DNA from: a virus
Reading direction: 5' to 3' (one strand)
IMG/VR virus record: IMGVR_UViG_3300005805_000045
Location: 1 to 64,000 of that record
Length of the DNA stretch: 64,000 nucleotides
The position numbers were made by a program, and so were the translations under genes. Under the pieces are notes generated by a model. It had not been told where the DNA came from. It saw only the letters and a program-made list of their open reading frames with translations, and did no database searches. Shown here piece by piece: positions 26,251-50,092 of the stretch (positions are counted from its first letter, which is position 1; every line of letters begins with the position of its first letter).

Positions 26251-27714
26251 CTAGATTCCTTTGAGTTCTATTTTATAGAGTTTGAATTGAAACTTTTCTT
26301 CACTGTAGATTTTGATGCGTTCTTGGAAATGCTTGAGAGTGTAGTTCTCGTGCTTCTTGTGTCTCATGTCATCCGCAATATCATAGAGTGTCGCTGATGA
26401 TTTGGTATCTGACTTACGTAGGCTTCGACCTATCGATTGAAGATTCCTAATACGAGATTTAGAAGGGCTGGCAAAAATGACATTGTGTAGATTGCGAATA
26501 TTGACACCAGTGGAAAAAGTGCCGTAACTAGCAACAATGATAGCGTCTCGTTCTGACTCAACGATTGCTCTTGTTTCTTCTCTGATTTCCACATCAGTTT
26601 TGCCATAAATGAAGAAAACTTTTCTTTCATCAGCCTTTTCTTTTATCAGTTGTTCTAGTATTTTTCCATGCTTATCGACATACTGATAAAGAACAAGAGT
26701 GTTTCCTTCGAGAGACAATGCTAGATTCCGAATAAACTTGTTCCTAGTCTCATTCAATACAAGATATTCAATTTCTTGTTGATATGTAAAGTTTCTTGCA
26801 GCCTGACATACACTATCAGAGTGTTTTAGCAACAGACACTTGATGCGAAAATCAGCAACATGTTTTTGATCCATAAGCTCTTTAGTCGTGATGACTTTCT
26901 TGACAGGACCAAAGAGTCCTTCAAGAACCAACTTATGTGTCTTTGTGCCGTCAAGTGTACCTGTAGTACCAACTCGATATTTAGCATTAACCAGATTGGT
27001 CATGATATGTGTGAGTGACTTTGCTTTGAACTGATGAGCTTCGTCGCCAATCACTGCTTGGTATTGTTTGAAATACGCTGCTGGTAGTGTGTGTAGACTT
27101 TGCCAAGTTGAGATAACCACTGGCTTATCAGTCTGTTTGTCTTGTCCAGCAAATATACGATGGACATAGCGATCAGAATCATAGCCGTAATCAGCAAAAT
27201 CAGTGAAAAGCTGAGAAACCAGTCCTGTTGTGGGAACGATGATAAGAATTTTTGAATTGTGTTTTTCTAAAAACCATCTTATCATCAAATAGATAATAAG
27301 CGATTTACCCGATGCAGTAGGACTAAGAAGTAAGCACTTATGTTTGCGAATAGCATGAATGAACGAATCAATCTGATAATCTCTTGGTTCATATTTGAGA
27401 TTGATTTCTTTAGCAAAGTCTTTAGCTTCTTGAATTGAAATCTCTTCATCATGATCTTCTTCATATGTAAAATTGTAGTTCCTATCAATGCAAAACTTTT
27501 CAATATATTGAATAAGACCACGATATATTTGTCTAGTTTGTACGTTGAATAAGTAAATTTTTCCGTCCCAAATTCTGGCTCTAAACTGAGGTGAAAATTG
27601 AGCGCCTGGAACCATAAACGAAAACGCATCTCTAAGTTCATAGGCAATACCATCAGAACAATCTATAATCACATAAGATTCGTTTTTGTTTCTAACAATA
27701 ACAGTATCTGTCAC
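26251..27714 (-). CDS. uvsW: SF2 helicase UvsW, GTG start
   Basis: [30 protein letters not shown]. Confidence 0.97.
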
Positions 27715-28247
27715 TTTTTTCTTTTCGCTTCGCTGATTTTTCTTTTAGTCTCATCTGAAAGTTTTCTTCCTGTTAATGCTTTGGACAATTTCAAAAACGT
27801 TTCTTCTGTTCTTTTTTTGAATGCCAACGACATTTTTTGTTTTGACTCTTGTGTGTGCCTTTTATTTTTCATTGATTGTCGTATTTTATCTTTATGCTCT
27901 TGAGAAAATTTCTTACCTGAATTAGATGTTCGTAACTTTTCTATATGAGAAGATGTAAAAATAATTCCAGATGTGCCTTCACCACCGTCTGTGAGATTTC
28001 TCAATATACCTGTATTGTTATCTATGCGACCGTACCAACGAATATATCTGCGTTCAAGTGCTAATGCTCCAACTTCAGTAAGATTGTTTTCCATTATAAC
28101 TATTCTACGTCTATCTGTTGGTAAATTCATTGAGTGTGTTTTTTGCCATGCTCTATTGCCTTTACCTTTGCCAATATAGTAAGGCGTGCCATCTTCTCTA
28201 AGATAAGCATAAACATAGTATTCTAATGTGGGTTGATAAATAGACAT
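27711..28247 (-). mobile_element. GIY-YIG/NUMOD3 homing endonuclease
   Basis: [19 protein letters not shown]...R...E...[10 protein letters not shown]. Confidence 0.88.
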
Positions 28248-28315
28248 AGCTGGCGCTCCTGTTTAGCGTTAGAGTGGGTAGATGTTTCCAGCATCGTGAC
28301 CCACATCTATTTATA
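28248..28315 (-). promoter_or_regulatory. Late promoter plus conserved structured HEG leader, copy A
   Basis: TATAAATA-gat-GTGGGT-cac-GATG-ctggaaa-CATC-t-ACCCAC-tctaa-CGCT-aaacagg-AGCG-ccagct-ATG. Confidence 0.8.
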
Positions 28316-28318
28316 ATA

Positions 28319-28768
28319 CTACTTACCTCCAGTGAACCTCTCCCATTCGATGATGGACTTGATCTGAAACGTTCTACTATGTAGTTCTTTCAGAATAGAG
28401 GTAGCAGCATCAGCAATTTCTTGATTCATAACTTTTTTCAGCAAAATCTTATTCAAATCATTATCTCCATCCAGATACATGGGAATATCTTGTCTTATAA
28501 TATTTTTGACCATGGGTTCTAAGTTGTGTTCTTTGAGGTCTTCTGGATTATTCAAATTTCCTTTGTAATACTCCCACTTCAATAACTTGGTGCGCTGATA
28601 ATCGTTGTGAAGTTTCTTGACCATTAGATTATGGTAACTTAGAATGCGTAGATATTTGGCATGAAGAATAGGTATCTTTGCCATCGCACGACCAGGTTCT
28701 GTTTCATCAATAACAGAGTCCTCAGCCCATATAGACATGAGGTCTTCAAGAGAGACAGGTGGCTTCAT
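28319..28768 (-). CDS. uvsY: Recombination mediator UvsY
   Basis: WAEDSVID, IPILHAKY, YLDGD, RTFQIKSIIEWERF. Confidence 0.92.
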   Translation of the reverse strand: MKPPVSLEDLMSIWAEDSVIDETEPGRAMAKIPILHAKYLRILSYHNLMVKKLHNDYQRTKLLKWEYYKGNLNNPEDLKEHNLEPMVKNIIRQDIPMYLDGDNDLNKILLKKVMNQEIADAATSILKELHSRTFQIKSIIEWERFTGGK

Positions 28769-46798: not shown

Positions 46799-47801
46799 TT
46801 ATATTGGGAAACTCTTGAATAGTTGTAGAGTATCCGAAATCATCACCTGGTTCGGCATCGATTGGATCAGGCTCAACAGTAATCTTGACAAGTTTGAGCG
46901 GTGAAGCATCAAACGTTGATATGTTGTAAACAGCATTTGTTGATACTGCTCGAATCGTATTATTGACTTTGAACTGACCTTGAGCACCACCGATTTGAAT
47001 CTTCTTTAGTTCTGGATTCCATTCATTAACAAAACCGTATGCTGTGGCTGTATCGTAGTTATTTCCTTGATAAACAATATCACCGATCTTGAATGTCGAG
47101 TTAGCACCATTGTTGAGATACATCCGAACGATATTACCAGCAACCAGAGATGGATCGTTGAAGATATTGGCAATAGACTTGCGAATGATCTTTGGTGTTG
47201 TGATTGGACCAAAGAAATAACCCTTGACTGTAAATGTAAAGTTCCAGTTTACATACCGAACAGTATCGTAATTGCCCTCATAAGTGACATTCTGTGTGAC
47301 ACTGTTTAGAATGATAGGAATGTCTTTCAAAAATCCTAGTTCAGACACAGGAGTCATAGTAAGTGTAAAGTCAGGATTGAAATATGGCAAAATCTGCTCT
47401 GCTATATGTGTGCCATCGTCAATTGTCTTTGTGTATAGATTAAGTTCAAAGTTTATGTCATATGGCACACCCATGTACTGTGATGAAACTCTGGATGCTG
47501 TATCACCTTTAGCAACACGAAGGAGTGAGTTCTGCTTTCTAGATTGATCATATCCAATGCCAGTGATTTCAAATGACAGTCTTGGTAGAATGTTCTGAAA
47601 CTCACGAAGCAAGTCTGGATCTGATTCAAGACGTGTTACAAAGTGATCTTTGGGTGCATAAACGATAGGAACTTTCCATCTCTTGATTTCATTGTTACTA
47701 TCTTTCTCTGTTCTAATGATTGTGATGTCATTGAACATCGACCCAAAAATAATGACATATTTTCGTAAGAGTCTGTAATAAAAATGTGTATTACCGAGCG
47801 T
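46791..47801 (-). CDS. gp15: Tail terminator gp15, predicted ACG start
   Basis: VPIVYAPK, LPRLSFE, EQILPYFNP; conserved-looking N-terminus (T)LGNTHFYYRLLRKYVIIFG begins at ACG 47801, 9 nt after GGAGG. Confidence 0.9.
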   Translation of the reverse strand, partial: TLGNTHFYYRLLRKYVIIFGSMFNDITIIRTEKDSNNEIKRWKVPIVYAPKDHFVTRLESDPDLLREFQNILPRLSFEITGIGYDQSRKQNSLLRVAKGDTASRVSSQYMGVPYDINFELNLYTKTIDDGTHIAEQILPYFNPDFTLTMTPVSELGFLKDIPIILNSVTQNVTYEGNYDTVRYVNWNFTFTVKGYFFGPITTPKIIRKSIANIFNDPSLVAGNIVRMYLNNGANSTFKIGDIVYQGNNYDTATAYGFVNEWNPELKKIQIGGAQGQFKVNNTIRAVSTNAVYNISTFDASPLKLVKITVEPDPIDAEPGDDFGYSTTIQEFPNINE

Positions 47802-48312
47802 TGGAATAACCCTCCTTTCTTTTTTTCCACCAGAGTTTTCTGGCTTCAGACATTTTTTGTTTTTGTTCCATACTTTTCTTTACACCAAGATGAGTTTCTT
47901 TTAGAATATTTCTATGCGCATCAGAAAGTTTTTTTCCTTTATGCTGCAATCCTATTATTTTTTTTCTCTCATCTGTTATAGAGTGTTTTCCTTTATTTGA
48001 TTTAGAAATTTTCTGTTTAGTTTCTTCAGAGTGTTTTCTACCAATCAGTTTTTGTCTTACTTTTTCTATATGCTCTTTTGTATGTTTTCTTCCAGTCTGT
48101 GCTTTTCTTATTGCAACTAATGTTGCTTCAGCATGTGTTATTTGTCCTGATAATGCTTTCCATGCAATTTCATCTTCCCAATGTCCTAAATCTTCCCATA
48201 GTTGTTTATGTAGATTTGCATGTTCTTCCATTGATACTAAAACAATATTTGACTTTTCGTCTGTTCCACCCATATGTTTAGGTATAATATGGTGTTTATG
48301 ATAAATATTCAT
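47791..48312 (-). mobile_element. HNH/NUMOD3 homing endonuclease (Mob-like)
   Basis: HKHHIIPKHMGGTDEKSNIV...EEHANLH; ATG 48312 follows AGGAG. Confidence 0.88.
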
Positions 48313-48383
48313 ATACTGGTGCTCCTCATTAGCATTAGAGTGGATAGAGACTGCAATCTCGTGATCCACATTTTTTATTTATT
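48313..48383 (-). promoter_or_regulatory. Late promoter plus conserved structured HEG leader, copy B
   Basis: AATAAATA-aaaaat-GTGGAT-cac-GAGA-ttgcag-TCTC-t-ATCCAC-tctaa-TGCT-aatgagg-AGCA-ccagtat-ATG. Confidence 0.8.
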
Positions 48384-48384
48384 C

Positions 48385-49257
48385 TTATGGTACTCCAAAT
48401 GGATTGCGTTCGGAGAAGTCAATATAACTATTGGCCTCTGATTGTAGAACTCTGTTATCAAAGAGATCATAGTATGGCGACTCACTGAATGTGTTTGTGA
48501 GAACGATTCGCATATTGGTATTTGAATCCATGCCTCTGATATTAGAGTTGTTGGCAAACTCACCTTTGATTGTGTTCAGAGAAATGATCTTGTTGTTTGG
48601 ATCCCAGTTGCTTACTGATGCTGTGGCTGTGGCTGTAGCAAGTGTATTGCCCTGATATACCGTCTCACCAATTCTATAGTTACCAGAACCAGTCATGTTA
48701 TAGTTCAAAGTAAACACAAAATCATCAGAAATCTCGTCAATTTCTTCAACACCTGTGTTCATATCTTCGTTTGAGTATCTGAAGTTCTCGCAACGTATTT
48801 CATAGATGTATGGGAACTTTCTGCCAAGTGTGAAGAATAGCAACTCATCTTCGACGAACTTTATTTCTAGAACCTTATTCATAACAGGAACAAAGAGTAG
48901 ATCACCTTCTCTGGGTCTTCTTGCTATATTTGTTGGTACATACTTATCAAATGTTCTTTTTGCAAGAACAATGTTTGTGTTTTCTCTAATTTCAAGACCA
49001 AACTTTGAAAAGAAGTCACCATCACCTTCGTAGCCATCTACGTTAGCAATATACATTTCCATTTGATAGGCACGTTCGAACTTTGATTGAATATTCTCAC
49101 CAAATATTTGATCAGTTGTATCCCATGCCTCACGAGGAAGATAGTAGATATCATGACCCATGATTTTAATGGACTCGACAAGCACATCTTCATAAAGTCT
49201 TTGTTCGCCTGTGCGATATTTTGGAGAAAAGTTGTTGAAGTAATGGTTTGTGGCTAT
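48385..49257 (-). CDS. gp14: Neck protein gp14, predicted ATA start
   Basis: YYLPRE, FSKFGLEI, RPREGDL, FSERNPFG; (I)ATNHYFNNF begins at ATA 49257, 9 nt after AGGAG, with an in-frame TAG just upstream. Confidence 0.9.
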   Translation of the reverse strand: MATNHYFNNFSPKYRTGEQRLYEDVLVESIKIMGHDIYYLPREAWDTTDQIFGENIQSKFERAYQMEMYIANVDGYEGDGDFFSKFGLEIRENTNIVLAKRTFDKYVPTNIARRPREGDLLFVPVMNKVLEIKFVEDELLFFTLGRKFPYIYEIRCENFRYSNEDMNTGVEEIDEISDDFVFTLNYNMTGSGNYRIGETVYQGNTLATATATASVSNWDPNNKIISLNTIKGEFANNSNIRGMDSNTNMRIVLTNTFSESPYYDLFDNRVLQSEANSYIDFSERNPFGVP

Positions 49258-49261
49258 GGCA

Positions 49262-50038
49262 CTAAACTCCTATATTTTTGACTGTGCCCCTAAACCATTC
49301 ATCTCCGGGACATTCTTTACTTCGTTTATTTATCACACCATTGTTCCACCAAAACGATCCCTTTATATACTTTGCATTATTTGGCGGACGTCCTTTCATT
49401 GTAGCACTTGTTTTAGCATTCATTTGCTTTTTCAATTCAGGATCATGCTGTTTGCCATAAAAAGGATTCTTTTCACCACTAAGAGCATCACTAACTTTTT
49501 TTCTATGTTCATCTGATAAAGGACCCAAGATTTTTCCTTTATTGCTTTCAGATATCTTTCTTTTTGTTTCTTCTGTTTTTTTCTTGCCAGTATTAGATAA
49601 CGATCTCTTTGCGATTTGTTCTAGTGTTTGTGGAGATAGTTTTTTGCGTCCCTCTAAATATTTTTTTTGATATTCTGGATCTTGATGAAGTTTCTTAGAT
49701 GCTTCAGATAGTTTTTCACGAACGTTTTTGTTAGATTGATCATCAATGTGCCAATGGCCAAAATGTTTTTTGCTCAAATTATAATATTTAATGCCCAACT
49801 CGTTATCGGCAATTAATTGAAGCCATTTATGCTCTTGTTCCAACAAAACTTCTTTATCAATATTTTTCTGAATAATACGTCGTTTGAAATTTTCTGGTCT
49901 ACGCCTATATGCATCACGCATTCTTCTAGACGAACAGATGTATCCATCATTTATAGTTCCATAGTGACAGCCGAGATAATACATCTTACGCTTGCTGTCA
50001 TACCAAATATAGATAAATCCTGTCTTTTCTTGGCACAT
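49262..50038 (-). mobile_element. Free-standing Seg-like GIY-YIG homing endonuclease
   Basis: GFIYIWYDSKRKMYYLGCH...YYNL, NUMOD3, WWNNG C-terminus; TATAAATA at 50070-50077. Confidence 0.88.
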
Positions 50039-50092
50039 AATCGGTTCCCATCATAGATATCTTTAGAGCTATTTATATGCAAAATGCGTCAC

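Follow-up and report, generated by a model that had tools for sequence, protein, structure and literature searches.

Why do two homing endonuclease genes of different families in one T4-like lake phage carry the same leader, and on which strand does the conserved structure of that leader lie? Homing endonucleases are, to our knowledge, the commonest selfish genes of large phages, and we know of the control that keeps them harmless from a few T-even cases only, all of them sense-strand hairpins. The window, that is, the whole stretch of 64,000 nucleotides analysed here (positions 1 to 64,000 of IMG/VR record IMGVR_UViG_3300005805_000045), holds two such leaders. A preliminary description of the window had read them as a portable, covarying RNA of the nuclease mRNA, perhaps a riboregulator or a protein-binding site.

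Results

Two leaders of one layout in the window

The first leader (copy A) lies on the minus strand between uvsY (28319-28768) and an ORF of 178 aa (27711-28247, -), which was assigned as a GIY-YIG-type/NUMOD3 free-standing homing endonuclease from its Pfam NUMOD3 match, tblastn and the ORF list. The ORF has GIY-YIG-type motifs, and its tblastn relatives are annotated as Seg-like or intron endonucleases. The first bases of the cassette are the sense late-promoter box TATAAATA (28308-28315, -), which begins 3 nt past the uvsY stop codon TAG (28321-28319). On the gene strand, this box (28315-28308) is followed by GA, U, P1 (GUGGGU/ACCCAC), a CAC bulge and P2 (GAUG/CAUC), and further 3' by U, UCUAA, P3 (CGCU/AGCG) holding the AGGAG of the Shine-Dalgarno (SD) sequence, CCAGC, U and the start codon ATG (28247). 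At the far end of the gene, AAG TGA (27711-27717, -) overlaps the GTG start of uvsW (GTGA).

The second leader (copy B) belongs to the gp14/gp15 locus, where an ORF of 173 aa (47791-48312, -) between gp14 (neck) and gp15 was assigned by Pfam and tblastn as an HNH/NUMOD3 free-standing homing endonuclease. Pfam gives NUMOD3 and a weak HNH match (18.9 bits, cutoff 21.4), and the tblastn relatives bear HNH or homing endonuclease annotations; phage S-SRM01 has one of these relatives at the same gp14/gp15 site. The sense late-promoter-like box AATAAATA (48376-48383, -) stands 1 nt past the stop codon TAA (48387-48385) of the gp14 neck protein, as located by ORF and Pfam. The gene strand then reads, from the box (48383-48376), A5, U, P1 (GUGGAU/AUCCAC), CAC and P2 (GAGA/UCUC), followed by U, UCUAA, P3 (UGCU/AGCA), CCAGU, AU and ATG (48312). 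In the regions 47738-47830 and 49185-49275 (-), the longest ORFs of gp15 and gp14 that begin with ATG, GTG or TTG start well inside their Pfam profiles (positions 17 and 50, respectively), and these two genes, each directly 3' of a nuclease gene, may use the non-canonical starts ACG and ATA.

A third homing endonuclease ORF in the window (49262-50082, -; 258 aa, with NUMOD3 and a GIY-YIG-like N-terminus) is without the cassette. Although it has TATAAATA without a mismatch at 50077-50070, its leader is a different one and unstructured; the module is thus absent from some nuclease genes of this phage. TATAAATA itself is enriched in the window, with 9 occurrences found against 3.3 expected.

By sequence, the layout given for both leaders in the preliminary description is correct on the minus strand, and the four compensatory pairs that it counted between copies A and B (one in P1, two in P2 and one in P3) are present. 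It had also assigned the two nucleases to different families with NUMOD3 in both, and this agrees with the GIY-YIG-type motifs of A and with the weak HNH match and annotated relatives of B. Its placement of the structure downstream of the late promoter, unlike the T4 homing endonuclease hairpins, holds as well: the sense late box stands outside the conserved helices, 2-5 nt upstream, and an arrangement of the T-even type, with the promoter within the hairpin, was not found. Two further points stood only in part. The motifs CAC, U, UCUAA and CCAG, which had been called invariant and unpaired, are identical in both copies, but UCUAA and YCAG are paired on the antisense strand. As for P3, which had been drawn over the SD, its compensatory pair is real, but single-sequence minimum free energy (MFE) folds of the gene strand recover P1 and P2 in both copies and miss P3 in the 69-nt leaders; P3 appears only when longer flanks are included. 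Several resemblances were considered by eye and set aside: a pseudoknot between the P2 loop and CAG (the loops vary and CAG is constant), a K-turn (pairing is normal for the GA that follows the bulge), a leader peptide (the copies do not agree in reading frame), and a likeness to preQ1-I or to a tRNA T-arm.

A family of leaders upstream of homing endonuclease genes

A first sequence pattern gave 43 IMG/VR loci, and a second, looser pattern did not constrain most of P1, half of P2 or any of P3. Among the matches listed, 62 of 72 pattern loci in viral contigs were true copies by covariance model; in prokaryote genomes, likewise among the matches listed, the model accepted only 1 of 80 loci, on a 2.2-kb contig of a metagenome-assembled genome, and the rest were chance matches. 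The preliminary description had proposed a covariance-model search of viral metagenomes with a tally of the downstream genes, and such a search found a family with mostly nuclease ORFs downstream. With model R1, at least 111 distinct copies were found in IMG/VR contigs of T4-like phages, almost all directly 5' of endonuclease ORFs, and ten other large T4-like IMG/VR records had 1-7 copies each. Copy B scored 88.5 bits with R1 and 78.5 bits with R2. The same 163,885-bp phage genome contains a third copy (R1) at 116386-116475, outside the window, and the ORF downstream of it is a PHROG endonuclease.

The cargo was surveyed using 79 downstream ORFs with a length of 100 aa or more. By Pfam, 28 of them have NUMOD3, 12 a GIY-YIG family and 14 an HNH family, and PHROG homing-endonuclease families dominated (phrog_314 in 43). 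By N-terminal motifs, 50 of these ORFs were GIY-YIG-like, 16 HNH-like, 2 both and 11 neither, and several of the remainder were PHROG endonucleases. The cassettes are flanked by T4 core genes, namely gp23, gp32, gp15, neck, UvsY/UvsW, terminase and PhoH; the sampled loci sit between intact core genes, and the Pfam families listed for the sampled flanks included no intein domain.

Rfam 15 had no match across the whole window at the gathering threshold. For positions 28200-28360, with E up to 10, R1162 antisense RNA came out best, with 12.1 bits (gathering score 55). Both results agree with the earlier statement that the element is not a named RNA family. A BLAST search of the element against 50,697 phage records returned short chance matches only, megablast of the element region found no near relative, and a covariance-model scan of five cultured cyanophages with related nucleases (S-SRM01, MA10, S-H34, S-N03 and S-SKS1) did not find the element.

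Insertion, loss and rearrangement of the cassette

At the uvsY/uvsW locus, the limits of the insert in the window run from the late box, 3 bases past the uvsY stop, to the uvsW start codon. One relative, L178, has a UvsY that is 87% identical; there, the uvsY TAG directly abuts the start of uvsW, with neither element nor nuclease gene; a second relative (L180) has the same uvsY-uvsW junction, also with the element absent. Because L178, which has no nuclease gene, joins uvsY to uvsW, leader and gene together form one inserted cassette. Judged from these junction sequences, the control region travels with the nuclease gene and the cassette is portable. In the DNA contigs of four freshwater or drinking-water runs, no contig bridging a nuclease-free junction was found; all that these contigs showed were loose ends at the points of divergence of other copies of the element. 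The uvsW gene of L178 starts with TTG right at the uvsY stop, and that of the window with the GTG overlapping the nuclease stop; since the start differs with and without the nuclease gene, the cassette supplies or reshapes the start of a downstream essential gene.

Three loci (L062:1426-1515, L067:1569-1658 and L121:1623-1751) have intact cassettes followed by truncated GIY-YIG or HNH remnants of 30-43 aa. From these intact cassettes before truncated ORFs, the RNA module can persist after the loss of its nuclease gene. At another locus (L069:1576-2511), the cassette precedes a 312-aa ORF, the C-terminal half of which matches head-closure protein (phrog_218, 1.6e-58) and which has only a weak endonuclease match (phrog_15137, 1.5e-05); in this ORF, what is left of a nuclease may have become joined in frame with the structural gene downstream. 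In addition, the P2 loop occurs in both orientations (L022 vs L083; L008 vs L009; L090 vs L078), and exact reverse-complement twins exist for 8 of the 68 different P2 hairpins and for 10 of the 54 loops, which points to hairpin-mediated inversion of the loop in DNA.

Base changes favour a fold on the antisense strand

Two of the alignments used (A3 and A7) were fitted to the model structure, and the antisense-orientation covariance model was run over the same sources as the sense model. The gene strand has 14 pairs that are 94.4% standard, with 343 double-sided changes, a count that overstates independent events because the aligned sequences are related. None of 500 shuffles reached that level, slid registers fell far below it, and P1 alone has at least 14 fully complementary versions across the family. 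Together with the copies found (at least 111) and the nuclease-free junction of L178, these changes bear out the earlier idea of a portable covarying element tied to unrelated homing endonucleases. On the antisense strand, 18 pairs are 98.9% standard, and again none of 500 shuffles matched the observed values. Here P1 is 100% and P2 99.1% paired, with compensatory changes at every pair, and the helix of hairpin 1, the antisense counterpart of P3, has 98.0% of its cells paired over the family.

The exceptions to Watson-Crick pairing distinguish the strands. All 11 non-Watson-Crick cells of P1 on the gene strand are A.C or C.A and none is G.U, in at least 8 stem backgrounds, and at the first pair of P3 the gene strand has C.A in 37 of 83 copies and U.G in none. 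Since an A.C on the gene strand is a G.U on its complement, this wobble asymmetry points to an antisense fold, and antisense hairpin 1 contains an invariant G.U (82 of 83). Pairing between UCUAA and YCAG is possible on the antisense strand only (CUGR with UUAG), and it lengthens P3 to 8 bp there. All four of these pairs are present in at least 84 of 108 antisense MFE folds, and one divergent copy (L043:9709-9798) has a double change from C-G to U-A at one of them. Because the two motifs pair on the antisense strand, they are helix strands rather than single strands of a leader that bind a protein or ligand, the role that the preliminary description had suggested.

Folding calculations gave a similar picture. 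RNAalifold was applied to 17 gapless sequences in an alignment not fitted to any structure, and it returned exactly the 18 model pairs on the antisense strand (-22.56 kcal/mol) but only 10 pairs on the sense strand (P1 and P2, no P3; -14.17 kcal/mol). The antisense MFE was the lower one in 101 of 108 copies (means -18.1 vs -13.2 kcal/mol), and the composition-controlled mean z was -2.46 for antisense and -1.51 for sense. The third copy of the genome, with its flanks included, gave the better fold on the gene strand. In the alignments and folds taken as a whole, the conserved fold is one selected on the strand antisense to the nuclease gene; the wobble asymmetry, the UCUAA/YCAG pairing, RNAalifold and the 101 of 108 MFE comparisons speak against the earlier assignment of the fold to the nuclease mRNA leader.

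For copy A, the fold and the family statistics predict a cis-antisense RNA of about 68 nt (28248-28315, +). We infer that it starts 5-6 nt past an antisense-pointing box and ends in the U-rich tail AUCUAUUUAUA. Antisense hairpin 1 (28250-28272, +), predicted from the MFE fold, the family pairing and RNAalifold on the antisense strand only, has an 8-bp stem (28250-28257 / 28265-28272) with two G.U pairs and a 7-nt loop, CCUGUUU, that complements the SD region of the nuclease mRNA. Antisense hairpin 2 (28274-28304, +), predicted from family pairing and from compensatory changes at every pair, consists of P1 (28274-28279 / 28299-28304) and P2 (28281-28284 / 28292-28295), with a GUG bulge and a single A opposite, and the U-rich tail comes next. 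The MFE is -23.7 kcal/mol (z -3.1) on the plus strand and -19.4 kcal/mol (z -2.0) on the gene strand. For copy B, the fold and the covariance-model matches predict an RNA of about 70 nt (48313-48383, +), with hairpin 1 at 48316-48323 / 48331-48338, hairpin 2 at 48340-48369 and the tail AUUUUUUAUUUAUU; its MFE is -18.9 kcal/mol (z -2.3) on the plus strand vs -14.6 kcal/mol (z -1.3) on the gene strand.

A conserved box pointing out of the gene

Both copies have a late-promoter-like box, GATAAATA, that points in the antisense direction (28235-28242, +, in copy A and 48300-48307, +, in copy B); these boxes were assigned from the sequence and from the family-wide conservation of a heptamer. In the GIY-YIG-type ORF of copy A and in the HNH ORF of copy B alike, GATAAATA is the complement of nt +6 to +13, that is, the third base of codon 2, codons 3-4 and the first base of codon 5. 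Across the family, an exact TATTTAT stands at ORF +6 to +12 in 72 of 109 copies, and 82 of 109 have an exact sense box. In 45 of 46 cases, the four-fold degenerate position of codon 2 carries T, compared with 37% in the ORF background (p = 1.6e-18), Ile is written ATT in 81 of 95 (background 43%), and Tyr is written TAT in 86 of 93 (background 72%). By these codon statistics, the heptamer (codons 2-4, T ATT TAT) is held at the nucleotide level. Its complement is ATAAATA, the late-promoter core, pointing backwards. In three loci (L104:4317-4415, L127:2702-2794 and L119:5503-5606), the start codon ATG is shifted about 9 nt upstream, which brings CCAGC-ACA-xIY into the translated part, and TATTTAT and CAGC are kept; that these are kept despite the shifted ATG argues for a constraint at the nucleotide rather than the protein level. 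In the 27 copies without an exact ATAAATA, roughly half have CTAAATA, which may be an accepted late-promoter variant in these phages. The complement of the heptamer matches NATAAATA, the late consensus in phage S-PM2 (PMC2984593).

The antisense strand continues past hairpin 2 with A, 2-5 nt and UAUUUAU. The first 9 nt after hairpin 2 contain a mean of 5.2 U, and hairpin 2 has a mean energy of -10.2 kcal/mol; a simple terminator scan made no call at copy A or B, and the stem of hairpin 2 has a 3-nt bulge. The late promoters of T4 have their box at -13 to -6, and by this geometry the antisense transcript would start at GCUGR or 1-4 nt before it. The U-rich tail overlaps the sense promoter and the backward box overlaps the x-I-Y codons, so neither is independent proof.

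Discussion

The observations of the preliminary description on this locus are confirmed, and its interpretation is partly supported. We favour, with moderate confidence, the reading that the copies are the 5' control module of mobile homing-endonuclease cassettes, in which a backward late box gives an antisense RNA that represses the nuclease. The cassette module, of about 80 bases, is probably the source of a small antisense RNA by which the nuclease is held in check; the individual steps, namely that the backward box fires, that the RNA ends at the tail and that it represses the nuclease, are what we infer from the arrangement of its parts. Two late-promoter boxes would face each other, about 66-75 bp apart. 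The upstream box, (N)ATAAATA, would drive the nuclease mRNA, and the second box, the complement of codons 2-4 pointing out of the gene, would yield an antisense RNA of about 65-75 nt. This RNA is predicted to begin with the 8-bp hairpin, the loop of which is the SD complement, and to continue with one A, a bulged hairpin of 6+4 bp and a U-rich tail that is the complement of the sense promoter. It would be fully complementary to the SD, the spacer and the AUG of the nuclease late mRNA and, for that reason, is expected to block ribosome binding or destabilise the mRNA. The convergent promoters may additionally interfere with each other, and the outcome would be a low nuclease output.

Several other explanations have to be weighed against the antisense RNA. 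The conserved helices could instead be a sense 5' leader fold (P1/P2, with P3 covering the SD) and work as a riboregulator, stabilise the 5' end or bind a repressor protein. P1 and P2 reach about 98% pairing on the gene strand too and are present in sense MFE folds, the SD is located in P3, and the third copy with its flanks folds better on this strand; by T4 geometry, moreover, late transcription would start at base 1-3 of P1 and put a hairpin at the extreme 5' terminus of the transcript, where hairpins are known to be stabilising. As Watson-Crick helices form on either strand, P1/P2 may have a sense role. However, the gene-strand mismatches are A.C and not G.U (with the first P3 pair C.A in 37 of 83), UCUAA and YCAG are left without explanation, RNAalifold gives no sense P3, 101 of 108 copies have the weaker fold on the sense strand, and in the class with a 2-nt spacer the late transcript would lack two P1 pairs, so we regard a sense leader as unlikely to be what was selected. 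A mask of the T4 type receives still less credence from us. Here, the AUAAAUA of a read-through RNA would pair with UAUUUAU of codons 2-4 and close a three-way junction hiding the SD and AUG, and the late RNA would be open. The box and TATTTAT are exact complements and both conserved, and the mechanism, which could coexist with an antisense RNA, is established for T-even homing endonuclease genes (PMC2988022). The predicted unpaired probabilities shift in the expected direction, although the shift is small (read-through vs late RNA: SD 0.40 vs 0.49, AUG 0.37 vs 0.46). Yet the helix between box and heptamer, seven A-U pairs closing a multiloop, is in the MFE fold of only 12 of 100 read-through RNAs, box and heptamer do not covary, copies without the box retain TATTTAT, and the antisense wobble pattern is left unexplained.

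The cassette could also be an element of the DNA level, with inverted boxes and palindromic stems serving recombination, mobility or the extrusion of single-stranded hairpins, and with no RNA function selected. It moves as a unit bounded by inverted ATAAATA/TATTTAT, and its P2 loops occur in both orientations (exact reverse-complement twins for 8 of 68), which is typical of hairpin-mediated DNA flips. G.T is, moreover, the best-tolerated mismatch in DNA hairpins. Against it, an invariant wobble together with strand-specific wobble tolerance over 18 pairs is the usual signature of RNA, a promoter, two hairpins and a U-rich tail read naturally as a transcription unit, and loop flips occur also in hairpins with an RNA-level function; we therefore give a pure DNA element only a slim chance. 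Finally, an antisense RNA could be made and act otherwise, in trans on other copies or on the nucleases of co-infecting phages, by binding a protein in the manner of a type III antitoxin, or as an antisense terminator. Copies within a genome share GCUGR, UUAGAG and the GYG bulge, and IS10 RNA-OUT works mainly in trans at high copy number (PMC5006887), but the stems and loops differ among the copies of one genome, which limits cross-pairing, and such action as the main role seems to us very improbable.

The closest known arrangement to the proposed antisense RNA is RNA-IN/RNA-OUT of IS10. In IS10/Tn10, a backward promoter inside the 5' end gives an antisense RNA of about 70 nt, stable and structured, by which ribosome binding is blocked (PMC5006887). 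In both systems, the gene for a mobile element's own DNA-cutting enzyme has a backward promoter, here a promoter-like box, at its 5' end, and a structured RNA of about 70 nt, here predicted from sequence and fold, lies across the translation initiation region. The two differ in the promoters (sigma-70 there, phage late-type boxes here), in the cargo (a transposase there, homing endonucleases here) and in the RNA, which is predicted here to have two hairpins and to cover the whole leader; IS10 has no sequence or Rfam relation to the cassette. In T-even phages and Aeh1, a late promoter lies inside the inhibitory hairpin of I-TevI, I-TevII, I-TevIII, segB and Aeh1 mobE, and the late RNA is without one arm (PMC2988022). 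Our cassette resembles these in having a late promoter immediately 5' of a nuclease gene, RNA structure around the SD and the apparent aim of restricted nuclease synthesis, but its helices are wholly downstream of the box and are selected on the other strand, and one sequence family is common to unrelated nucleases.

Two earlier reports come near to the present family. Dassa et al. 2009 describe conserved hairpins, TATAAATA and two complementary motifs in the 5' UTRs of free-standing endonuclease genes at T4-like 'fractured gene' loci of the aquatic GOS metagenome, and the cassette is said to bring its own control region (PMC2677866). The likeness is close: aquatic T4-like DNA, TATAAATA and a hairpin before GIY-YIG or other free-standing endonuclease ORFs, and complementary stem motifs. 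By comparison of these descriptions, the cassette family is probably the same element as those hairpins, and this weakens any claim of novelty. In that paper, however, the hairpin is read as a sense-strand mask of the ribosome-binding site of the Aeh1 mobE type, with no antisense reading, covariance model or wobble analysis, and the context there is the 'fractured gene', whereas here it is intact T4 core genes with no intein among the listed Pfam matches. An antisense RNA opposite a homing endonuclease gene of a T4-like phage is also on record: according to a paper that summarises Millard et al. 2010, CfrI of cyanophage S-PM2 is about 225 nt long, spans the nuclease gene and psbA, has no known function and comes from a single locus (PMC2984593), so that, on this summary, it is not a repeated 5'-end cassette of about 70 nt. 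In our literature search, CfrI was the only antisense RNA linked to a phage homing endonuclease gene, no paper gave an antisense reading of these nuclease leaders, and queries with the motif strings returned unrelated primers only.

Whether the leaders make up a large undescribed family of late-promoter-driven cis-antisense small RNAs, at the 5' end of mobile cassettes for GIY-YIG, HNH and other nucleases in uncultured aquatic and soil T4-like phages, is in our judgement evenly balanced. If they do, the antisense family would set the dosage or timing of the nucleases, and its conserved segments might allow action between copies or between co-infecting phages, similar to the 'multicopy inhibition' by RNA-OUT. 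It would be a sizeable addition to the catalogue of RNA families and would account for the frozen first codons of the nuclease genes, and the module would mark the exact 5' edge of nuclease cassettes for annotators. A portable antisense module common to unrelated nuclease families would also be a new general answer to how such genes are controlled.
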